Source of the DNA: an uncultured Planctomycetota bacterium
GTDB lineage: Bacteria; Planctomycetota; Uabimicrobiia; Uabimicrobiales; JABWCH01
Reading direction: 5' to 3'
DNA: 64,000 nt
Assembly: GCA_964585305.1 (NCBI GenBank)
Contig: CAZPDM010000013.1
Location: 1 to 64,000, forward strand
Shown: positions 8,012-52,827 of the stretch, piece by piece
Numbering within the stretch: position 1 is the first letter of the stretch
Layout: every line of letters begins with the position of its first letter
Notes under the pieces: model-generated
The model's database searches: none
Told to the model about the DNA's origin: nothing
Seen by the model: only the letters and a program-made list of their open reading frames with translations
Program-made: the position numbers and the translations under genes

Positions 8012-10069
8012 ATGAAAAGATTGAGCATAGCTCTCATAGCATTATTGATACTTGTTAGTTTTCTAACTGCACAAGTAAAATGGGTTTCTGTTGATGGCGT
8101 TACCAAAAAACCTGCGCCAATTCAAGTCAAACTCTTAAATGCTACTGCTGAAGAAATTAAATTTGAAGTAACCGTTCCTGGTTATATTGAACGCAAAGTT
8201 GTATTGCCAGATGGCAAAGAAGCTGTAATGATCCACATTCCAGAAACAGTTTGCACAATGGAACAAGGATTTCCCATGCTTCCTTCTTTTGCCAAACCAA
8301 TCAAACTTGCAGATCGTTGCGAAGCTGAATTGAAACTTTTAGGGAAAGAAGAAGCTGAATTCAAATTGAGCTTACCAGTAGTCCCTTCTAAAGGTCATTT
8401 CACTCGTGATATTCCTGAAGCATCTGTTCCTTTTGCTTTTGGACCAGTCTATAAACAAGACGTATTCTGGCCAGCAGAAAAAGATCAATTCAAACTTGGC
8501 AAATCTTTCTTATTGCGCAACGTACATGGTGCAGTTTTCACCATGTTGCCAATTCGTGCCAACCATGTTCAAATGAAACTTCAAGTTGTCAGCAAAGCTA
8601 CTTTTGCTATCGTATGCAAAGAAGATGGCTTAATGATGGCAACCACTCGTACTCCTCAAATTCCTAGCAGAACTTACCAAAATTTAACTAGCAATTTTAT
8701 GGGTTATGAAGAACCTATGCCACTTCGTGGTGATGTTCCTTCTGAAAACTTGAAAAAACTAGTTGTTGTTACTCCTAGCAAATTCGCTAGTACTATTTCC
8801 TCTTGGGTAAATTGGAAAAAACAATGCGGCTATACTGTAACAGTTAAAGAAGTCGCAGATGGTGTAACAGCCAGTACTATCAAATCCTACTTACAAGGCC
8901 TTTATGATAATACCGACACCCGTTTCGGCTATGTTGTATTGATTGGCGATGCCTCCTACAATTCCAATTTTGAAGTTGCACAACCCATGCCAAGTTTCAA
9001 AGGAAGTATGGAAGGTGCTGCTGCTGATCGCGTTTATGTACGCTTAGCTGGTGCTGACAATTATCCTGATGCATTCATTTCCCGCATTTCTGCTACCACT
9101 GAAACTGAAATTACAAACCAACTTACCAAAATTATGGAATATGAAAAAGGTACTTATGCTACTGGATCATGGCTTAATACTGGTATTACCATTGCCAGTA
9201 ACCAAGGCAGTCCTACTGACTATGAACGCGCCAATTGGATTATCAATGGCGGCGGCACTGGACAAAAAGTACCTATCGTAACCGGTGGTCTTTCTAAATT
9301 CGGTTATAGCTTCCCAACAGAAAACAAAATCTATGATCCAACCGCTTCCGCAGCTAAAGTAACCGCAGCAGTCAACACTGGTGCTGGAATTATTTGCTAC
9401 ATTGGTCATGGTAGCGATACTTCTTGGGGCACTACTGGCTTCAGCGTATCCAATGTTAATGCTCTAACTAATGGTGGAAAACTACCTGTAATTTGGAGCG
9501 TAGCTTGCGTTAATGGTAACTTCTTAAAAGTTGGAACTTGCTTCGCCGAAGGCTGGCTACGTAAAGCTAATGGCGGTGCAGTTGCTATGGAAGCTGCTTC
9601 TACCAATGAATCTTGGGTACCTCCTTGCGATAAACAAGCCGCAACAATCAACGCCATCATCAACAAAAAATACAGCACTTTTGGTGCTTTGGAATGTGAA
9701 GGTGTAGTTGCTGGTTTGAATAACTGGAGTTCTACCAATAGCAGCGAAGGTAACAAAATGGCCGAACAATGCCATCTATTTGGCGATTGCACAATGATAG
9801 TTCGCACCAAAGCCGCGACAGCTCTTCAAGTATCCAAAGAACGCGGTCTAGACAATAACATCGTTTTCAATGTTATGACCGAAGAACGCTCTGTTGCAGA
9901 TGCAACCGTTACCGTCTATAACCAAGACTTCAGCATTATGGTCAGTGGCGAAACTTCTGAAGATGGTACAGTCAACATCATTCTACCAGAAGAAGCCGCA
10001 AACGCTGAACTATTCTACACTGTAGTTGGTCAAGACGTTATTGCTATTGACAATGAAAAATTAAACTAA
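8012..10069 (+). CDS. Secreted cysteine peptidase, family C25 (gingipain-like)
   Basis: Signal peptide. Catalytic His context YIGHGSDTSWG and Cys context IWSVACVNGNF, as in gingipain-family C25 peptidases. AGGAGA RBS. Confidence 0.7.
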   Translation: MKRLSIALIALLILVSFLTAQVKWVSVDGVTKKPAPIQVKLLNATAEEIKFEVTVPGYIERKVVLPDGKEAVMIHIPETVCTMEQGFPMLPSFAKPIKLADRCEAELKLLGKEEAEFKLSLPVVPSKGHFTRDIPEASVPFAFGPVYKQDVFWPAEKDQFKLGKSFLLRNVHGAVFTMLPIRANHVQMKLQVVSKATFAIVCKEDGLMMATTRTPQIPSRTYQNLTSNFMGYEEPMPLRGDVPSENLKKLVVVTPSKFASTISSWVNWKKQCGYTVTVKEVADGVTASTIKSYLQGLYDNTDTRFGYVVLIGDASYNSNFEVAQPMPSFKGSMEGAAADRVYVRLAGADNYPDAFISRISATTETEITNQLTKIMEYEKGTYATGSWLNTGITIASNQGSPTDYERANWIINGGGTGQKVPIVTGGLSKFGYSFPTENKIYDPTASAAKVTAAVNTGAGIICYIGHGSDTSWGTTGFSVSNVNALTNGGKLPVIWSVACVNGNFLKVGTCFAEGWLRKANGGAVAMEAASTNESWVPPCDKQAATINAIINKKYSTFGALECEGVVAGLNNWSSTNSSEGNKMAEQCHLFGDCTMIVRTKAATALQVSKERGLDNNIVFNVMTEERSVADATVTVYNQDFSIMVSGETSEDGTVNIILPEEAANAELFYTVVGQDVIAIDNEKLN

Positions 10070-23760: not shown

Positions 23761-23900
23761 GTCCATGCACTGACGTGCATGGTAGGAATTAACCCGCCGC
23801 TTATAAATGATGGCTTTAACGAAAGAAAATTTGCAGCGGGTTCAATTCCTCACAGTTGAATCTCAAACACATAGTTGGCATATTTTTTAGTCCAAAAACT
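23761..23900 (+). ncRNA. Copy A of a roughly 135-bp repeated structured element (candidate sRNA or cis-regulatory RNA), upstream of 23957..24400
   Basis: About 85% identical to 29159..29297 in the same orientation. Conserved long-range stem GGAATTAACCCGCCGC / GCGGGTTCAATTCC. Followed by a perfect 13-bp hairpin at 23902..23933. Confidence 0.4.
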
Positions 23901-29158: not shown

Positions 29159-29297
29159 GTCCATGCACGGATGGTAGGAATTAACCCGCCGCTTATAGAC
29201 GGTGATCTTTAACGAAAAAAAAATTTGCAGCGGCGGGTTCAATTCCTCATAGTTGGATATCAAACACGTAGTTGGCATATTTTTTAGTTCAAAAACT
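29159..29297 (+). ncRNA. Copy B of the roughly 135-bp repeated structured element, upstream of 29423..30829
   Basis: Aligns along its length with 23761..23900. The same stem is preserved, with a compensatory-compatible insertion in the 3' arm. Confidence 0.4.
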
Positions 29298-29422
29298 TTT
29301 GTCTATTCATTTATCTTAGCTTTTGAGAAAGTAAAGTCAAGAAAAAATTAGCATTTGGTTTGACTTTGCTAGGATTATATATACAACTTTTAACATTAGT
29401 TTCTACCAAGGAGGATGCCACA

Positions 29423-30829
29423 ATGCGCCAATTTTGGAATCGTATTTTAGCTCGAAAATCTCCAGTCTTTTGGAGTATGGTAACTTTTTTTGTTGGAATA
29501 ACTTTGTTTGTGATCATTCAATTAGGAAGGAATTATCTTCCCTGGTTGGCCCAAGAAATACTTCCTAGAATTCCTAACCTTAATAATAATATTGAAATTC
29601 GTTTGGAAGTTAAAAATCCTACCAATGTTTCTGTTCAATCTAAATTGGAAACTTTTAAAGTTGGGACATCTGTTTATCGTTTTCAGCCTAAATTAGAGGT
29701 TTTAGGTTTTGTAAAAGATATTCAAATTAAGTCCGATCATGTTTTATTTTTATTGAGCATTTCTGCAAAATATAAAGATGCTATATTATGTGATACTACG
29801 AAGTTTGAGCTTTTACAAAGCTCTCCTTCTATGATTATGATTTTTCAGCGTTTTTTTGAAGGGCCAAATGCTCAACAGTTTAAACAAGAAATGAAGCGAT
29901 TAGCAGAAAATAACCAAAGTAAGATCAGTATTATTTTTCTTAGATTAACACAAATTCTAGGAAGTAAAATAAAAAATGAGCAGCAAGCAAAAGCTATTTT
30001 GGAAGATCCGCAGCTAAAAGCCATGATTTACGAGCAATTTCGCGAACAAATTACTACAAAAATAGATTTACAAGAACTTTGGGATAAGCTGGAACAAAAT
30101 CCCCATGCAAAACACACTGTAGAAATTTTTCAAAAAAATATTGATTGGAAAAAAGTTAAATATCGAGCTATTGCTGGTGCTGGTTCACAAGCATTGGAAG
30201 ATGCTTCTACAGCATGGCTAGATCCTAAAATGGTTTTTGATGATCCAAATACAGCAGCAAAAGCATTGTTTTCTGTAATGAATTTTATTATTGATCCAAG
30301 TACAACAACTAAACGTGGAACAGATGCTTTGATTCCAGGGGCAACAAAAGCAGCTGTAAAAGCTACAGCAAAGGAGGCAGGAAAGATTGCTAAAGAAAAT
30401 TTCCCGGAAATTTTAGAAAGCGGAAGTGAAGCAGCAATCAATGTTTTAACAGAAACTCAAACACCACAAAAAATCTGGGAAGGATTATTGAATTTATCAA
30501 AAAATAAACAAATTCGAGAATATACTCAAAAACGTTATGGCTCTAAAGTAACAGAGGCTATCAGTCAAACTTTTATTGAAGCTTCCAATGATCCTCAGAT
30601 TGTTACAAATTTTAATACAATTGTATCTGATATACAAAATATAACAACAGGATGGTTAGAAAAATTTCTGTTGGACGAAACGCATAGCGGCCCAAATCCA
30701 TTACTTTTAGTAGCTATTCGAGAAGGTATTTCTCAAAAAATAGAATCGCAAATTGTTTGTTATCCTGGAGAAAATGGCCGTCGAGTATCATCGGAAAATA
30801 TTTTTGTTACAATCTTTCAAGATTTTTAG
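29423..30829 (+). CDS. Hypothetical membrane-anchored protein (N-terminal TM; possible MCE/MlaD-like periplasmic domain)
   Basis: The ATG at 29423 has an AAGGAGGA RBS. One N-terminal TM helix (VFWSMVTFFVGITLFVIIQ). The downstream segment loosely fits an MCE beta-barrel pattern (inference only). 13-bp gap to the next gene. Confidence 0.4.
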   Translation: MRQFWNRILARKSPVFWSMVTFFVGITLFVIIQLGRNYLPWLAQEILPRIPNLNNNIEIRLEVKNPTNVSVQSKLETFKVGTSVYRFQPKLEVLGFVKDIQIKSDHVLFLLSISAKYKDAILCDTTKFELLQSSPSMIMIFQRFFEGPNAQQFKQEMKRLAENNQSKISIIFLRLTQILGSKIKNEQQAKAILEDPQLKAMIYEQFREQITTKIDLQELWDKLEQNPHAKHTVEIFQKNIDWKKVKYRAIAGAGSQALEDASTAWLDPKMVFDDPNTAAKALFSVMNFIIDPSTTTKRGTDALIPGATKAAVKATAKEAGKIAKENFPEILESGSEAAINVLTETQTPQKIWEGLLNLSKNKQIREYTQKRYGSKVTEAISQTFIEASNDPQIVTNFNTIVSDIQNITTGWLEKFLLDETHSGPNPLLLVAIREGISQKIESQIVCYPGENGRRVSSENIFVTIFQDF

Positions 30830-30841
30830 GAAGCAGCAATT

Positions 30842-32704
30842 ATGACAAATTCGCAAAACAATATAGAGAATAAAAACTCTCCAATATTGGATATTCAGGG
30901 AATTAGTATACAAACAGTAAAACCAACTGTGTTTGGTATTACAAAGAAAAAATCTAAAGAAAAAGATAAAATCGCAGCAAGTACAAATATAAAGGATATT
31001 GTAAAATCAGAGGTCAGTATTGAGCCTTTATTATGCAATTTAGAATTGAGTGCGTATCCCGGAGAGATTGTCCTTTTATTAGGTGCAAGTGGTACAGGAA
31101 AGTCTCTTCTTGCTAATCTTATTTTAGGATTTGTCTCCAGCGTTGATAAAGGAATTGTTATTAAATCTGATCATAGTAAAGCCCATTTTTCTGTAAAACT
31201 AGAGCAAAGTCCTACAGAATATAATCTTTTAAATCCTATATATCCTACAGATTTAGAAGGAAAAATTGGAGTCATGTTTCAATCTCTAGGACTTTTTGAT
31301 GATCTTACAGTAGGCGAAAATTGGGAGATTGCAAACGATCAATCACAACTCCCTCTTGCTGGGACAGAATGGAACGATTGGAAACGTGAAACTTTAAAGT
31401 CTTTGGGGTTAGACGATAGTGTTTTACAATCTAATATTCATAAACTTTCCGGGGGACAGAAGCAGCGTGTTGCATTTGGTCGTCTTTTGGCTTTTCAACC
31501 AGATATTATGATATTAGACGAGCCTACCAGTGCATTAGATATTTCTACTGCACAACAAGTTGTTGGAATGATCCAAAAAACTCATAAAAAGAAAATTTTG
31601 GAAAATAAAAAATGCCTGACTTTAATCATTACTCATGATTATGAAAATTTTATTCAAATTGCCGATCGAGTTTGGTACATATCTCCAGGAGGAATCATTC
31701 AAAAGGAAGATGGAACGACAGAAAAACGCACTGGTGGGCATGTTGAAAATCATTTTCCTCCCAAAAGTAAAACTTATTATGAAAAAGATCTTTGTACTAA
31801 ACGATATCCTGATGAACCATCAGATTATTCTCAAGAAGAATGGCTACGACATGAAGCACGTTGCCAAGATATAGCCTACAATACATTATTTCTGAGGTTT
31901 TTTCAAAGTTTAATCCGCGCCATGCGTCCTAAAAACTATCGTTGGTGGCGTAAATTTTTTGGTATTATGTGGAAATTGTTAGTAATGCGTGCGTTACTTT
32001 ATATCTTGGTGACAGGTTTTTTCTTAGGATTAGTTTGTACATATTTTTCTCTTAATCTGAATCTGGGTTCTGTCCAATTAGCAAGTGGAACAAAAGTAAA
32101 GGTCGAGCAATTTATTTTGCCAACTTTTTTCCGCGAAATGTTAAGCGGATTTGGGATTGTTATGTTTCGCGCACTTATTCCTTTGTTTACTTGTATTTTT
32201 ATTGCCGCTCGATCTGGAACTGCAATTACTTCTTATTTATCTTCTATGAGAGATAACGAACGAAGACAATGGGATTCTTTGCAAAACTTAGGTATTGAAC
32301 CGCATCTTTTTTTCTTTCCTCAAATTGTAATATGCTTTGTATTAGGATGTTGGATATTATCGTATCTTTCTTTTTTATGTGCTGCATTAGGCTCTCTTTT
32401 AGTGGCTCTAGCTACAAATCCTCTTTGTACCTGGTATACATGGATGGACACATTTTGGAAATATCTTTATCCCCAACCACTATTTGATGTAATAAGCTTT
32501 ATTCCTATTTTTGCAGGCTTTGGTATGTTTACTTTAAAAACAATGGTTGTTGGCTTTGCTATTGCCTGCATCTCTTTCTCCTGGGGAGTAAAATTAAGAA
32601 AAAATACATTGGAAACTATCCACCATCTTATGGGAGCTAATATTTGCAATATGGTTGCAATTTTGTTGGTTTTCTTTATCTTGTTAATTATAGAATTAGG
32701 ATAG
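30842..32704 (+). CDS. ABC transporter ATP-binding domain fused to an MlaE-like permease domain
   Basis: Walker A GASGTGKS, signature LSGGQKQRVAFGRLLA, Walker B IMILDEPTSALD, H-loop ITHD. The C-terminal roughly 250 aa has about 5 TM helices and MlaE/YrbE-like segments (FIAARSGTAITSYLSSMR; LQNLGIEPHLFFFPQIV). Confidence 0.65.
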   Translation: MTNSQNNIENKNSPILDIQGISIQTVKPTVFGITKKKSKEKDKIAASTNIKDIVKSEVSIEPLLCNLELSAYPGEIVLLLGASGTGKSLLANLILGFVSSVDKGIVIKSDHSKAHFSVKLEQSPTEYNLLNPIYPTDLEGKIGVMFQSLGLFDDLTVGENWEIANDQSQLPLAGTEWNDWKRETLKSLGLDDSVLQSNIHKLSGGQKQRVAFGRLLAFQPDIMILDEPTSALDISTAQQVVGMIQKTHKKKILENKKCLTLIITHDYENFIQIADRVWYISPGGIIQKEDGTTEKRTGGHVENHFPPKSKTYYEKDLCTKRYPDEPSDYSQEEWLRHEARCQDIAYNTLFLRFFQSLIRAMRPKNYRWWRKFFGIMWKLLVMRALLYILVTGFFLGLVCTYFSLNLNLGSVQLASGTKVKVEQFILPTFFREMLSGFGIVMFRALIPLFTCIFIAARSGTAITSYLSSMRDNERRQWDSLQNLGIEPHLFFFPQIVICFVLGCWILSYLSFLCAALGSLLVALATNPLCTWYTWMDTFWKYLYPQPLFDVISFIPIFAGFGMFTLKTMVVGFAIACISFSWGVKLRKNTLETIHHLMGANICNMVAILLVFFILLIIELG

Positions 32705-32713
32705 GTTAAAACC

Positions 32714-35293
32714 ATGCGACAAATTTTTTATCAAATATTACTTCTGGTTTTATTTTTCTTATTTTTCTTTATAGCTATTATCTTTGGAATTTCTGAAAAA
32801 ATGGTACTTTCTTTTATATCTTGTATTTGTTTTCTTTTTACAATATATCTACTAAAGATTGTTGCCCAAGCCAAAAAGAAATGTCAGCAAAATATTTTGG
32901 AAATTGCTGTTTTAGGCCCATCAGGAGCCGGGAAAACAACATTTTCTGCAACCTTAATCCAACAATTAGTAAGTGGTTTTCCAGAAGGCCAATCTGCTGG
33001 ACTATGCAAAGGAGTTGGATATTTAGATGATAACATTGAACGTGATTTACGAAAACTAGCAATATCTAAAAAAGATAGTGAAGGTTTTCTTCCCCTCCAG
33101 CGATTAACTTACGAAATGGCATCCACAGAATTAAAAAATTATTCTCAAGGAAAGCTAAATCCTACCCACGAACCAGAATGTCTATATTTGAAATTGTTGC
33201 ATGGCAATACTTGGTATCGTCTGGAATGGTATGATATACCCGGAAGTTATTTTGAAGAAGAAAATAAAGATTTTAGCTATATTAAAGATATATTACGACG
33301 TTGTCATGGCGTAATATTTTTAATAGATTCTACAAAATTACTAGATAATTCGTTTTCAAAAACAGAACTATCTATTTTTCTAAAAAATTATTTTACAGCA
33401 TTTGCTTTACGAATGTTTTCTGGAACAGTTGTTGGAAAATTTCCGCTTTGGATAGCCTTTACTAAAGGCGATTCTGTTTTGCAATCTCCCAATTATGAAG
33501 ATGAATTGACTCGCCAAACTTCCCAGATTATTATTCCTGCTAAACAACATGATGAACGATTAGAATTATTAGTAAGTACAATTTCAGCAAATGTTCAGGC
33601 GGAGCGTTTATATTTTAATATTCCATATTTTATGGGAAAGTTTTGCGAAAGTCTTTGGAATCAAATTACTGTCCGGCAAAAAGGATTTGCTATTTTAAAA
33701 AGATGGTTAATTTTTTGGTGTTTAATGTTGCTGTACTGTTCTTTAGAGACTACAGCATATTGGCATTTTTCAGAATTAACAAGGGTACAAGAAGCTGATA
33801 ACTTAACCATATCCTCTGCAATTGAGATATTAAACAGTCTATGTGAAAATCATAAAGGGGTAGGATTGCCTTCTTTTTATGTCTATCGAAAATCAGAACT
33901 ATTAGCTAAAGCAGAAATGGTACAATTTATGCTTTCTCGTTTACTTACAGAAAAAATGGAAACTATAGTTATTTCACAATCTCAATATCATGCTGATTTG
34001 CGGTTAATCCTAGATGCTATCTTTGCTTTAGAAAAAAGCATCAAAATTTTAAAAATGTCTCCAAAAGATTTTCAATATCAAAAACATTTTGCTGAATATT
34101 TAACCTCCTGGGATAAACATATACAAAATGGTTCTTCCTTAGTGAAAAAACTTGAGTTTAGTCAAAAAATTCCACAAACTCAATTTCAGTTAAAACAAGC
34201 TATTTTATCGGAAACTAAGATCGAATTGCAAAAAGAACTGGATCAATCTCAAAGCCTTGCTGATACTTATATTGGCGAACAGTATTACAACGATCGTCTT
34301 TTACCTTTAATCCAATGGTATAAAAATTATGGTGGAGTATTTACTGATTTAGATAATCTATGCAATAAATATCAAAATGAACATTGGGATTATTGTTGGC
34401 AAAGATTTTCTAAAGAACTCATGGAAAACTCAACCATTACTTTAGAACAGCAGGCGGAAAAGTTATATACATTTTTTCTTGCACAGCCTAAAGAAGATAG
34501 AAAAACACAACATCTTGGCCAATGTCCAGCTGCTATTTATTTAAGCTGGCAAAAAAAAGTTATACCTGTTTTACAAAAACTCGATATTACTCTAGCAAAA
34601 CATTTTTTATTATATGAACGCCTTCAAGAACAATTAGAACCTTCTATTAAGTCAGAAATAACTGGATTCCAATTTGATAAAACCATGAGGAATCTATCGC
34701 GAAAACTCTTGGATACTACATTTGATAACAAAAATGTAACTTTAGAAGAAATGGAAAAATCCCTTCAAAAATTTCAAACTGAATTTGCCCAATATCGCCC
34801 GGAAATGGCCAAAATTTGGCAAGAACGTTGTGCGTATTTTCGTAACCCACCAAGTTATGAAATTGACATTACTTTTCAAGAATATGGAACAAATGCAAAA
34901 AATAAAACAAAACGCTGGGATACTGGAATCTTAGATAAATGGTATCTTTATACAAAATTTTCTTCAGAAGAAAAACAAACGGTGTTATTTCTTGACTTAA
35001 GTCAAGGCGGTAATTTCCAAGGAAGTATCGAGCGAAAAATTTATTGGAAACCTTGGACAAAGATAACTATATCCTGGCTGGAAGCTGATGATGATGTAGA
35101 TGTTATTTTACGTGATGATATTATCTTATATAGTAAAGAATTCCGAAATTGCCTATCTTTACTTGATGCTCGTACTATCCATCAAATTCTTGAAAACCAA
35201 AATCAGGAAGAATATTGGATCAAATTTGATGTTAAAAAAATTGACGAAATTATTCCGGCTTGGTTGCTTGAAATATATTTACATCAAAATTAA
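32714..35293 (+). CDS. Membrane-anchored P-loop GTPase-like protein with a large uncharacterised C-terminal region (859 aa)
   Basis: Two N-terminal TM helices, then G1 GPSGAGKT, G3 WYDIPG (DxxG), G4 FTKGD ([NT]KxD). A further TM segment near aa 330. About 500 aa with no recognisable motif. Confidence 0.45.
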   Translation: MRQIFYQILLLVLFFLFFFIAIIFGISEKMVLSFISCICFLFTIYLLKIVAQAKKKCQQNILEIAVLGPSGAGKTTFSATLIQQLVSGFPEGQSAGLCKGVGYLDDNIERDLRKLAISKKDSEGFLPLQRLTYEMASTELKNYSQGKLNPTHEPECLYLKLLHGNTWYRLEWYDIPGSYFEEENKDFSYIKDILRRCHGVIFLIDSTKLLDNSFSKTELSIFLKNYFTAFALRMFSGTVVGKFPLWIAFTKGDSVLQSPNYEDELTRQTSQIIIPAKQHDERLELLVSTISANVQAERLYFNIPYFMGKFCESLWNQITVRQKGFAILKRWLIFWCLMLLYCSLETTAYWHFSELTRVQEADNLTISSAIEILNSLCENHKGVGLPSFYVYRKSELLAKAEMVQFMLSRLLTEKMETIVISQSQYHADLRLILDAIFALEKSIKILKMSPKDFQYQKHFAEYLTSWDKHIQNGSSLVKKLEFSQKIPQTQFQLKQAILSETKIELQKELDQSQSLADTYIGEQYYNDRLLPLIQWYKNYGGVFTDLDNLCNKYQNEHWDYCWQRFSKELMENSTITLEQQAEKLYTFFLAQPKEDRKTQHLGQCPAAIYLSWQKKVIPVLQKLDITLAKHFLLYERLQEQLEPSIKSEITGFQFDKTMRNLSRKLLDTTFDNKNVTLEEMEKSLQKFQTEFAQYRPEMAKIWQERCAYFRNPPSYEIDITFQEYGTNAKNKTKRWDTGILDKWYLYTKFSSEEKQTVLFLDLSQGGNFQGSIERKIYWKPWTKITISWLEADDDVDVILRDDIILYSKEFRNCLSLLDARTIHQILENQNQEEYWIKFDVKKIDEIIPAWLLEIYLHQN

Positions 35294-44818: not shown

Positions 44819-45424
44819 TTGAAAAATACCCTTGTAATTTTATTAATATTTTTGTTTTCGAATACAATTTTTGCCGCAAGCATTTCTTTGCAAGTAATTT
44901 CCGCTGGATATGATACCAGTGGCTATCCTGGTGGAGTTGCACGACTTTATGTAGATGGCGTAGATTACTCCAAAAACGGTCGTGGTATCAATATCGTAGT
45001 CATTGATAAAACTTATGGAAATGTTGTAAGCAGCGTAGTTTTTGACACATATTTAAGCACAACTGCCTCAGCAAATATGGTAACATTTATCAATAATATT
45101 GCTGCTGGAAATATTGTAATTGCAGCAGTAAAAGATGAAGCGACAGACAATATCACTTCTACTGCTATAAACGCTTTGAAAACCCTTGGTGCAAGTAGTT
45201 TTGCTCCAGGGTACCGCGGTTCTTGGGCTTTTATTGGCGAAAAGGGATTAGCAGCAGGGGCAGGATTACAAGATACCGATCCTCGTTATGGTGCAGCTAG
45301 TACCTTATCAAAAACAGTTGAACTTATGATTCCTGAACCTGGTACATATTTTTTATGTTTAATTAGTTTAGTTTTTGTAACATATCATAGAAAAAAAAGA
45401 AATTTATTTGTCATAAAGGAGTAA
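44819..45424 (+). CDS. ILEI/FAM3-like domain protein with C-terminal PEP-CTERM sorting signal, paralog 1
   Basis: GRGINIVVIDKTYGNVVSSVVFDTY...LGASSF.PGYRGSWAFIGEKG matches the ILEI/FAM3 domain pattern. C-terminus IPEPGTYFLCLISLVFVTYHRKKRN is PEP + TM + basic tail. TTG start with an AAGGAG RBS. Confidence 0.6.
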   Translation: MKNTLVILLIFLFSNTIFAASISLQVISAGYDTSGYPGGVARLYVDGVDYSKNGRGINIVVIDKTYGNVVSSVVFDTYLSTTASANMVTFINNIAAGNIVIAAVKDEATDNITSTAINALKTLGASSFAPGYRGSWAFIGEKGLAAGAGLQDTDPRYGAASTLSKTVELMIPEPGTYFLCLISLVFVTYHRKKRNLFVIKE

Positions 45425-45427
45425 CCA

Positions 45428-46024
45428 TTGAAAAATATTATGATATTTTTATTTCTTTTATGCTTCTTTATAACTCCATCCTTTGCTATTAGTATTTCTG
45501 TTGAAGTTCTTTCAGCCGGTTGGGAAGATCCTGGTTTTTATCCAGGTGGTGGAGTTAGAATTTCTGTCAATGGTGTTGACTATGCTGCACACGGTAGAGG
45601 TGTAAATATTGTAGTCATCGACCAATTTTCTGGCAATGTATTAAATAGTGTTGTCTTTGATACCTGCGGAAACACTTCAGCTTCGGCTAGTATGGCTAAT
45701 TATATTAGCAATATTGCGACAGGAAGAATTGTTCTTGCTGCTGTACAAGATGAAGCCTATCAATATATGTATAGCGATGGTGTAAATGCTTTGAAAACAC
45801 TTGGAGCTAGCAGTTTTAACCAAGGCTATCGCGGTTCTTGGGCTCTTATTGGAGCTAAAGGTTTGGCCACAGGAACGGGGTTGCAAGTTAGTGCAGTACG
45901 TGGCACTGGGCCAAGTACCTTATCTAAAATTATAGAATTAAATACTCCTGAACCTGGTACATATTTTTTATGTTTAATTAGTTTAATTTTTGTAACATAT
46001 CATAGAAAAAAAAGAAATAAATAG
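45428..46024 (+). CDS. ILEI/FAM3-like domain protein with C-terminal PEP-CTERM sorting signal, paralog 2
   Basis: About 55% identical to paralog 1 over the ILEI-like domain. The last 72 nt (PEP-CTERM) are identical but for one base. TTG start with the same RBS context. Confidence 0.6.
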   Translation: MKNIMIFLFLLCFFITPSFAISISVEVLSAGWEDPGFYPGGGVRISVNGVDYAAHGRGVNIVVIDQFSGNVLNSVVFDTCGNTSASASMANYISNIATGRIVLAAVQDEAYQYMYSDGVNALKTLGASSFNQGYRGSWALIGAKGLATGTGLQVSAVRGTGPSTLSKIIELNTPEPGTYFLCLISLIFVTYHRKKRNK

Positions 46025-52657: not shown

Positions 52658-52733
52658 TCCCCGGTAGCTCAACAGGCAGAGCGCGTGGCTGTTAACCACT
52701 AGGTTATAGGTTCAAGTCCTTTCCGGGGAGCCA
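52658..52733 (+). tRNA. tRNA-Asn (anticodon GTT), CCA encoded
   Basis: Manual cloverleaf: 7-bp acceptor stem TCCCCGG/CCGGGGA, D-arm GCTC..GAGC, anticodon loop CTGTTAA, T-loop TTCAAGT, discriminator G, CCA. Confidence 0.85.
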
Positions 52734-52740
52734 TCTATTT

Positions 52741-52813
52741 TCCCCGGTAGCTCAACAGGCAGAGCGCGTGGCTGTTAACCACTAGGTTATAGGTTCAAGT
52801 CCTTTCCGGGGAG
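52741..52813 (+). tRNA. tRNA-Asn (anticodon GTT), second identical copy, 3' CCA not encoded (CTA follows the discriminator)
   Basis: Body sequence identical to the first copy, 7 nt downstream of it. Confidence 0.85.
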
Positions 52814-52827
52814 CTAGAAAAAAATAT

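Follow-up and report, generated by a model that had tools for sequence, protein, structure and literature searches.

The MCE systems (Mla, Pqi, Let, Mce1-4 and the chloroplast TGD system) are, among known protein bridges, the principal means by which lipids pass between the two membranes of diderms, and their regulation, the control of their direction and the control of their assembly are still debated. They include MlaFEDB, the Mla inner-membrane complex of E. coli and A. baumannii, the mycobacterial Mce1/Mce4 systems, which carry six MCE paralogues, and PqiABC / LetAB of E. coli, which are built from multi-MCE chains. The envelope biology of Planctomycetota is itself unusual and poorly understood. 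Here we describe, in a stretch of 64,000 nt of DNA from an uncultured member of this phylum (hereafter the window, meaning the whole stretch analysed), a rare MCE/Mla variant in which an MCE protein, a fused ATPase-permease and a large membrane GTPase are encoded together, the last being a partner that no described MCE system has. No paper on MlaF fused to MlaE, or on an MCE system with an associated GTPase, was found in the literature searched, which was covered incompletely; this amounts to absence of evidence and no more.

Three open reading frames on the + strand were confirmed between positions 29423 and 35293, as had been predicted from the sequence alone, and a Shine-Dalgarno-like site lies 5′ of every ATG (AAGGAGG, AGGAAG and AGGATAGG). 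The gaps are 12 nt between genes 1 and 2 and 9 nt between genes 2 and 3 (the 13 and 10 bp originally given reflect a mere difference in counting), and no convincing between-gene terminator was found within the three-gene operon. The operon and the region immediately upstream are laid out as follows:

29171..29297, no strand assigned: copy B of a repeated intergenic element, ~125 nt, upstream of the operon
29360..29422, + strand: leader, with the Shine-Dalgarno sequence AAGGAGG 7-8 nt 5′ of the gene 1 ATG
29423..30829, + strand: gene 1, predicted MCE-domain protein (MlaD/Mce-like), 468 aa from the ATG
30842..32704, + strand: gene 2, MlaF-MlaE fusion, that is, an ABC half-transporter, 620 aa
32714..35293, + strand: gene 3, membrane-spanning GTPase, 859 aa

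The mechanical ORF of gene 1 starts upstream of its ATG (29423), at TTG 29360. The TTGACT found at the same position is a possible sigma-70-like promoter, read by eye only and absent from the scan output. That the operon follows copy B of a repeated element, as originally stated, was also borne out. This copy contains a long hairpin (GGAATTAACCCGCCGC...GCGGCGGGTTCAATTCC) and shares 87% column identity with copy A at 23779-23900; its fold z-score is merely -1.45, and no link between the element and the operon was shown. The operon is flanked by chromosomal housekeeping genes (RidA, an epimerase, MurJ, galactokinase and EttA). Gene 3 was not found in plasmid and phage collections, on which ground cargo of a mobile element was ruled out. 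The operon itself contains no gene for an outer-membrane component.

Gene 2 encodes a complete ABC ATPase joined to an MlaE permease in one polypeptide:

31019..31711, + strand: ABC nucleotide-binding domain, residues ~60-290
31985..32686, + strand: MlaE-type permease domain (PF02405), residues 382-615

Residues 66-230 match ABC_tran above the Pfam cut-off (E 2.1e-25), and all catalytic ABC motifs are unchanged across 34 homologues: Walker A (G81-K87), the Q-loop (Q147), the signature (L202-R209), Walker B (D226-E227) and the H-loop (H265). The permease domain matches PF02405 (MlaE/YrbE) with E 2.9e-16 and 60.2 bits (cut-off 22.5), the alignment spanning positions 10-210 of the 212 in the profile, and its only sequence matches in the PDB are the MlaE chains 6ic4_G and 6z5u_A. 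A search seeded on generic ABC signature motifs returned 80 unrelated ABC ATPases (L007-L086) and was uninformative.

The assignment of gene 1 is less direct. That is, its MCE domain was detected neither by the Pfam MlaD model nor by PDB sequence profiles, and the identification is based on a structural model built from a 12-sequence alignment (mean pLDDT 67). According to this model gene 1 meets the criterion of a membrane-anchored MCE beta-barrel protein encoded with a transporter, with an N-in transmembrane (TM) anchor followed by the barrel, a helical region of ~300 aa and a conserved C-terminal GPNPLLL motif:

29462..29530, + strand: transmembrane anchor, residues ~14-36, N-terminal and the only TM segment
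29585..29827, + strand: predicted MCE beta-barrel domain, residues ~55-135

The single hydrophobic segment of gene 1 was predicted at residues 14-32, and the N-terminus ahead of the anchor carries a net charge of +4 and is therefore placed on the cytoplasmic side. A metagenome scan with gene 1 yielded one further short contig, L087, whose protein is the same as that of L001, and a k-mer-seeded homology search for its family alignment matched only the query itself. Assembly into a hexameric MCE ring on the permease dimer, and lipid binding, are inferred by analogy. Since the MCE gene of this locus has no Pfam match, sequence-based surveys under-count MCE systems.

Gene 3 encodes a genuine GTPase fold, in which the TRAFAC criteria (G-domain fold, G1, G3 and G4) are met, set in a much larger membrane protein:

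32891..33613, + strand: TRAFAC GTPase domain, residues ~60-300
32915-32938, + strand: G1 motif GPSGAGKT, residues 68-75
33233-33244, + strand: G3 motif DIPG, residues 174-177
33461-33472, + strand: G4 motif TKGD, residues 250-253
33689..33745, + strand: internal transmembrane helix, residues 326-344
33746..34855, + strand: all-helical region, residues ~345-714, predicted periplasmic
34856..35248, + strand: C-terminal beta domain, residues ~715-845

The conserved R130-x-T132 could be switch I and S291 could be G5. DO-GTPase2 of Pfam matches 10 of 12 members of the family (best E 2.9e-12), while the window protein itself scores 20.7 bits, below the cut-off of 27 and over the P-loop only. The family is tiny, with 14 matches among 1.84 billion representatives at E <= 1e-3; a k-mer-seeded search found nothing but the query, and hhalign did not link the gene 3 family to that of gene 1. 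Hydrophobic segments occur at residues 8-26, 34-52 and 326-344, so that the window protein has two N-terminal TM segments versus one in its relatives. A start at the internal Met30 would leave one TM as in the relatives and remains possible, but the Shine-Dalgarno sequence AGGATAGG ahead of the ATG at 32714 makes it less likely. The internal hydrophobic helix is conserved, although of only moderate hydrophobicity in some members (Kyte-Doolittle 1.0-1.4), and its G-domain flank is positive in nearly all members, whereas the other flank is neutral or acidic in most. From these flanking charges it is inferred that the C-terminal 500 aa, including the helical region, lie outside the cytoplasm, in the periplasm. 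The helical region is supported by AlphaFold secondary structure (pLDDT mostly 75-90), and the beta domain bears a conserved acidic motif, WxPW...D.DGD.D...DDD, and a terminal P-x-W-L. No relative of the beta domain was found among PDB sequences, and since neither it nor the helical part has recognisable relatives, the role of both remains conjecture. If the inferred topology is right, the family would add a new prokaryotic G protein architecture (TM, G domain, TM, periplasmic domain).

The three genes are conserved as a set. An MCE gene, the fusion and a gene 3 homologue follow one another in this order in 8 of the 11 neighbourhoods sampled from the close fusion clade (the window, L001, L003, L005, L088, L089, L090 and L091), with intergenic gaps of -19 to +96 nt and fusion identities of 40-65%, and the same sub-clades were recovered for all three proteins. 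G+C content is about 33% in the window and 40-54% in the seven other three-gene contigs; keeping the same order in contigs of such composition, the arrangement is therefore no chance juxtaposition. The named relatives come from metagenome-assembled genomes of Planctomycetota and Brocadiae. The conserved linkage is thus shown, as are the domain identities, folds and motif conservation. For the three remaining close fusion relatives (L004, L006 and L094; only neighbourhoods were considered) no adjacent gene 3 homologue was found, and the transporter can therefore apparently work without gene 3 nearby. Moreover, the GTPase motifs have decayed in three of the eight three-gene loci (L005, L090 and L091), which form a sub-clade in whose proteins the TM helices, helical region and WxPW/DGD domain are all retained. 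GTP hydrolysis is therefore not the universally required activity, and the retention of everything else in these pseudo-GTPases points to a structural role as the conserved core function.

Every element of the original prediction survived these analyses. It had described an ABC domain fused to an MlaE/YrbE-like permease, which held, both Pfam cut-offs being passed; a single-pass membrane protein as gene 1, which also held; and a weak MCE/MlaD-like barrel pattern in the latter, which is supported by the model and not by Pfam. For gene 3, the motifs GPSGAGKT, DIPG and TKGD and the further TM segment were confirmed, while the two initial TM helices hold for the window protein only, relatives carrying one. 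It had also asked whether the GTPase co-occurs with MlaFE fusions elsewhere, as it does in the neighbourhoods just described. Of the two outcomes named as refuting it, neither was met: the permease scores as MlaE and not as another ABC-2 family, and gene 3 does not belong to a family with an established unrelated role.

Our preferred reading, towards which the balance tips only modestly, is that genes 1-3 encode a single envelope machine: a divergent MCE transporter spanning the envelope, with gene 3 as an integral accessory subunit and GTP as a regulatory switch. The cargo would be lipids or hydrophobic molecules of another kind. The ATP-driven core in the inner membrane would consist of two MlaF-MlaE fusion chains and be topped on the periplasmic face by a ring of gene 1 MCE barrels, as in MlaD, PqiB and Mce1, with the helical part of gene 1 extending as a stalk into the periplasm. 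The G domain of gene 3 would lie next to the ABC domains on the cytoplasmic side, from where the chain would cross the membrane via its TM helix and place its helical-plus-beta part of ~500 aa alongside or beyond the MCE stalk. GTP binding and hydrolysis may then act as a switch tying the state of the cell to assembly or gating of the transporter, a role analogous to that of the cytoplasmic regulator MlaB, and the periplasmic part may be structural or bridging. Topology, physical association, stoichiometry, substrate, direction of transport and the regulatory role of GTP are all inferred, there being no direct evidence of interaction.

A bolder reading, which we consider less likely than not, is that the locus represents a hitherto unreported class of lipid transporter that spans the envelope and is powered or regulated by two nucleotides. 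An ATP-powered MlaFE/MCE core would be paired with a membrane-spanning G protein, the cytoplasmic GTP switch of which would be mechanically coupled through the single TM helix to the ~500-aa periplasmic arm. The acidic beta domain, possibly Ca2+- or lipid-binding, would in that case gate or dock a bridge to the outer membrane. If this is true, MCE systems would gain in gene 3 their first GTPase subunit, and bacteria an example of a G protein that transmits across the inner membrane.

Three other explanations were considered. Gene 3 could be a membrane-remodelling GTPase in its own right, of the kind of dynamin, atlastin or mitofusin, rather than a transporter subunit, its co-transcription with an MCE transporter being explained by a common role in envelope homeostasis. 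This is unlikely. A dynamin-like protein was ruled out: Dynamin_N matches only one of the 12 family members (E 0.004) and TM-scores against Sey1p are 0.15-0.19. The helical region is also predicted to lie on the opposite side of the membrane, whereas the stalk helices of dynamins are on the G-domain side. Alternatively, the system could be an MCE transporter in which gene 3 serves as a trans-membrane sensor or signal transducer and not for structure or gating; its periplasmic domain would detect envelope or lipid status and its G domain would relay this to cytoplasmic targets. This too we regard as improbable: no conserved downstream target is encoded nearby in the neighbourhoods examined, the loss of nucleotide motifs in three lineages that keep the remainder of the protein disfavors a pure signalling role, and the very tight translational coupling of gene 3 with the ABC gene suggests stoichiometric assembly. 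Finally, a DO-GTPase-type biological conflict (defence) system, with the GTPase as switch and the ABC/MCE proteins as membrane effectors, could be invoked from the DO-GTPase2 matches of the family, from the occurrence of such conflict-system switches, some with TM segments, also in planctomycetes (Kaur et al. 2020, PMC7159879) and from a neighbouring gene with a weak vWA domain in the pseudo-GTPase sub-clade, but it is very unlikely and was ruled out on the PADLOC result (nothing for genes 1 and 3), on comparison with PMC7159879 and on genomic context (housekeeping flanks without a defence island). Against it stand the lack of GAP1, the partner that defines such systems, and of variable effectors in any examined neighbourhood, eight of which have a gene 3 homologue, the lack of a GAP1 domain by Pfam in gene 3 relatives, the sub-threshold, P-loop-only match for the window protein, a constant rather than variable gene content, and the absence of gene 3 copies in plasmid or phage collections.

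The reading of the locus as a single MCE machine can be set against the systems to which its parts are related. With DO-GTPase2 (PF19993) the gene 3 family has the TRAFAC G domain in common, and some DO-GTPases are likewise TM-anchored and present in planctomycetes (PMC7159879); in contrast to those systems, there is here no GAP1 partner, second paralogous GTPase or variable effectors, and the gene sits in a transporter operon, not in a conflict system. Similarity to YcjX (the Shewanella 'stress protein' GTPase, PDB 6nz4/6nz5) covers only ~45 residues around the P-loop (profile match to 6nz5 at query positions 24-68 only, E 3e-4), and Pfam lists no YcjX family for any gene 3 family member, so that YcjX membership was rejected for want of full-length similarity. 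YcjX is paired with the membrane protein YcjF; unlike gene 3, it is itself soluble, without TM segments, a periplasmic region or MCE/ABC partners. The canonical Mla pathway (MlaA-F) is not represented either, since F and E are fused and MlaB, MlaC and MlaA were not found at the locus; no match to STAS, MlaC or MlaA turned up, either among the window genes covered by family-search annotation or in the neighbourhoods of the relatives. Compared with MlaFEDB, ATPase and permease are thus a single polypeptide, the MCE protein, at 468 aa, has a helical extension of ~300 aa and escapes the Pfam MlaD model, and an 859-aa membrane GTPase takes the place of MlaB (STAS), MlaC and MlaA in the operon. Compared with Mce1/Mce4 and PqiABC / LetAB, there is a single MCE gene, the half-transporter is fused, and a GTPase accessory, present in none of them, is encoded. 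This combination of a fused ATPase-permease, a diverged MCE subunit and a conserved GTPase partner constitutes a natural experiment on MCE regulation.

The three genes lie in tandem on the plus strand:

29423-30829, plus strand: gene 1, MCE-domain (MlaD/Mce-like) protein, 468 aa counted from the ATG
30842-32704, plus strand: gene 2, ABC ATPase-permease fusion, 620 aa
32714-35293, plus strand: gene 3, membrane-spanning GTPase, 859 aa

The three plus-strand ORFs of the original prediction thus held in coordinates and lengths, and so did their tight packing, the gaps measuring 12 nt (gene 1/gene 2) and 9 nt (gene 2/gene 3) rather than 13 and 10 bp. A Shine-Dalgarno-like sequence precedes each ATG (AAGGAGG for gene 1, AGGAAG for gene 2 and AGGATAGG for gene 3), and no convincing terminator was found between the three genes. 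The window is uniformly AT-rich (G+C ~33%), and the genes flanking the operon form an ordinary chromosomal, housekeeping context, with RidA, an NAD-dependent epimerase, a DUF4340 protein and an MFS transporter on one side and a sugar MFS transporter, MurJ, galactokinase, xanthine-dehydrogenase-type subunits and, farther out, EttA on the other.

Residues 66-230 of the gene 2 protein matched Pfam ABC_tran (E 2.1e-25) and residues 382-615 matched MlaE (E 2.9e-16), both well over the curated cut-offs; the HMM check proposed with the original prediction therefore upheld its reading of a complete ABC domain fused to an MlaE-like permease. Used alone, the C-terminal half had just two PDB matches, 6ic4_G and 6z5u_A, both of them MlaE chains. 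A search of 5.8 billion proteins returned ~55 close homologues sharing this architecture over their full length (E < 1e-96), together with a few more distant fusions at ~26% identity. Few of the sources carry names, these being Planctomycetota, Candidatus Brocadiae and 'Deltaproteobacteria' MAGs. Moreover, the catalytic ABC motifs are all invariant across 34 aligned homologues. Therefore, the fusion is real and defines a rare clade, and it is probably active.

No family in Pfam or NCBIfam matched gene 1, nor any of 12 family members scanned one by one at E <= 10, and profiles of 5 and 12 sequences found nothing meaningful in the PDB. In all members of the family, a positively charged N-terminus leads into a single TM helix, in agreement with the single-pass membrane protein originally proposed. 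An AlphaFold2 model built on a shallow, 12-sequence alignment (mean pLDDT 67) predicts that the TM helix is followed by five strands within residues 57-131 (pLDDT 70-87) and then by an all-helical region. Named alongside this model are Mce1A-F, LetB/YebT, PqiB and MlaD as it occurs in three cryo-EM complexes. The MCE/MlaD-like beta-barrel, weakly suggested beforehand, has five predicted strands and no match from sequence profiles.

With gene 3, a k-mer-seeded search returned only the query protein itself, and an exhaustive phmmer search of 1.84 billion cluster representatives gave 14 proteins (E <= 1e-3), almost all between 855 and 1067 aa long. The family members align end to end and share the following features, listed from the N-terminus:

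N-terminal TM helix (one in relatives, two in the window protein)
hhEIAVLGxxGxGKT
insert with R113 invariant and R130-x-[TS] nearly invariant
W(R)D[IV]PG
hW[IV]hhTK[GA]D
(S/T)S(A) element around the invariant S291
hydrophobic helix near residue 330, with basic residues ahead of it
~370 helical residues with scattered invariant Trp
C-terminal domain with WxPW...D.DGD.D...DDD and terminal P-x-W-L

The GTPase-like domain and additional TM segment predicted from sequence alone thus held across these aligned proteins, and the two N-terminal helices held for the window protein only. Membership of a known YcjX-type family had been a concern; YcjX is the best PDB match of the family profile, and the similarity is confined to the P-loop (E 3.3e-4). 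Pfam DO-GTPase2 was matched by 10 of 12 members (best E 2.9e-12), the window protein remaining sub-threshold (20.7 bits, cut-off 27). Nothing related to the helical and beta parts was detected, and they are unrelated to gene 1. In nearly all members the charge before the internal hydrophobic helix is net positive, and in most it is neutral or negative after it; from this asymmetry we infer that the G domain is cytoplasmic and that the last ~500 residues lie outside the cytoplasm.

Neighbourhoods were read for ten close homologues of the fusion and for a single distant homologue (close-clade total with the window, 11), flanking-protein homology being tested by BLASTP, phmmer and HMMs. Gene orders were as follows (L-numbers denote contigs from other genomes):

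Window, L001, L003, L005, L088, L089, L090, L091: MCE homologue, fusion, gene 3 homologue
L006: MCE homologue and fusion, then an unrelated Cys-rich protein
L094: MCE homologue and fusion, then a 23S-5S rRNA operon
L004: fusion alone, MCE homologue 5.8 kb upstream
L092: distant fusion (27% identity) without gene 3, preceded by a 461-aa protein that the gene 1 HMM does not recognise

The proposed neighbourhood check was thereby made on this small sample, and a GTPase homologue accompanied the fusion, as part of the full three-gene set, in 8 of the 11 close-clade loci sampled. Across these eight, the genes are separated by -19 to +96 nt, the fusions are 40-65% identical and G+C extends from ~33% (window) to 54% (other contigs). 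MCE homologues are 15-41% identical to gene 1 of the window; for gene 3, identity is 18-28% among relatives from the representative search and 27-30% for L001 and L003. Furthermore, all three proteins divide into matching sub-clades.

Several loci showed further features. In L094 (3986-7240), the two genes directly precede the rRNA operon, with no 16S gene upstream and no gene 3 homologue within the contig; its fusion is protein P0010, from a cluster that is named Planctomycetota by NCBI. In L092 (6034-9053), from a Planctomycetales MAG, the fusion overlaps the 461-aa gene by one base; that protein had no family match and may be a further cryptic MCE protein. At 2 kb downstream there is a 1026-aa protein that weakly matches LptD_N. 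L003 (1-1817; contig G+C 40%) carries, ~4.5 kb upstream of the three genes, the gene for a 3324-aa fungal/actinobacterial-style type I fatty-acid synthase (SAT, MaoC dehydratase, acyltransferase, FAS ACP and ketoacyl-synthase domains), accompanied by a phosphopantetheinyl transferase.

In L005, L090 and L091, the gene 3 homologues have lost the G1 lysine/threonine, DxxG and TKxD (reading IIGVNGEHRRL, DLLH and VQSS in L005). The two TM helices are retained, as are the helical region and the WxPW/DGD domain. This indicates that the structural part of the protein is the conserved requirement and that nucleotide switching is dispensable in some lineages, GTPase activity itself being inferred. These loci share an extra conserved neighbour:

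L005, 12592-14742, minus strand
L090, 12364-14826, minus strand
L091, 12210-14750, minus strand

Its products (716-846 aa) are 29-31% identical between loci, the L091 copy having a weak vWA match (E 8e-4). This protein may make up for the inactive G domain or work together with it.

Elsewhere in the window, an intergenic element of ~125 nt is present twice (87% column identity):

23779-23900: copy A, between convergent genes
29171-29297: copy B, in the divergent region upstream of the operon

In each copy, an 18-19-bp hairpin stem (GGAATTAACCCGCCGC / GCGGCGGGTTCAATTCC) encloses an A-rich loop of ~40 nt, and after the hairpin comes a conserved tail with TTTTTTAG at its end. No Rfam family matched at gathering threshold, and the fold z-score was only -1.45. 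At positions 1-403, within ORF 14-574, a 27-nt unit (a 9-aa repeat) occurs ~10 times in tandem, identity declining from 99% to 61% toward the 3' end, and 52658-52814 holds a tandem pair of tRNA-Asn (GTT) genes that are nearly identical and separated by 8 nt. Two adjacent paralogous pairs, of ~600 aa (10189-12006 and 12111-13919) and ~200 aa (44819-45424 and 45428-46024), keep stretches at 75-92% nucleotide identity, which suggests recent tandem duplication; the ~600-aa paralogue examined had no NCBIfam match. A 685-aa, C25-peptidase-like protein (8012-10069) resembles PorU, the sortase of type IX secretion (E 7e-17, well short of the family cut-off), an unexpected presence should the organism be a member of the PVC group.

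MlaFEDB, PqiB, LetB and Mce1 provide a template, in which a permease dimer with two ABC domains is joined by MCE barrels arranged in a ring, and helical extensions form periplasmic conduits. The simplest account is that the three genes encode a single envelope machine of this type. The ABC and permease parts, fused in one protein, would form its core; the MCE subunit would bring its own long helical tail; and the gene 3 protein would be a third, membrane-crossing subunit, with the G domain beneath and the large domain beyond, acting as a regulatory GTP switch and in periplasmic scaffolding or bridging. We favour this account, including the double role of gene 3, with moderate confidence, association, topology, substrate and direction all being inferred.

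Alternatively, gene 3 could encode a sensor or transducer, a less likely reading. That it is an independent dynamin-like remodelling GTPase seems unlikely. Least tenable is a DO-GTPase conflict system, defined by a GAP1 partner and variable effectors (PMC7159879), since both are absent from the neighbourhoods read, PADLOC gave no match for genes 1 and 3, the context is housekeeping and the gene 3 protein was not found in plasmid and phage collections.

As for the favoured MCE-type machine, no published description of an MlaF-MlaE fusion or an MCE-associated GTPase was found in the full-text literature searched. A broad phylogenomic Mla survey (PMC10665443) contains neither 'fused' nor 'fusion', and it would miss the gene 1 protein because it depends on sequence detection of MlaD. 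The three-gene system clearly belongs to the MCE transporters, and it differs from the known ones in its fused ABC-permease core, its HMM-invisible MCE subunit and its conserved membrane GTPase partner.
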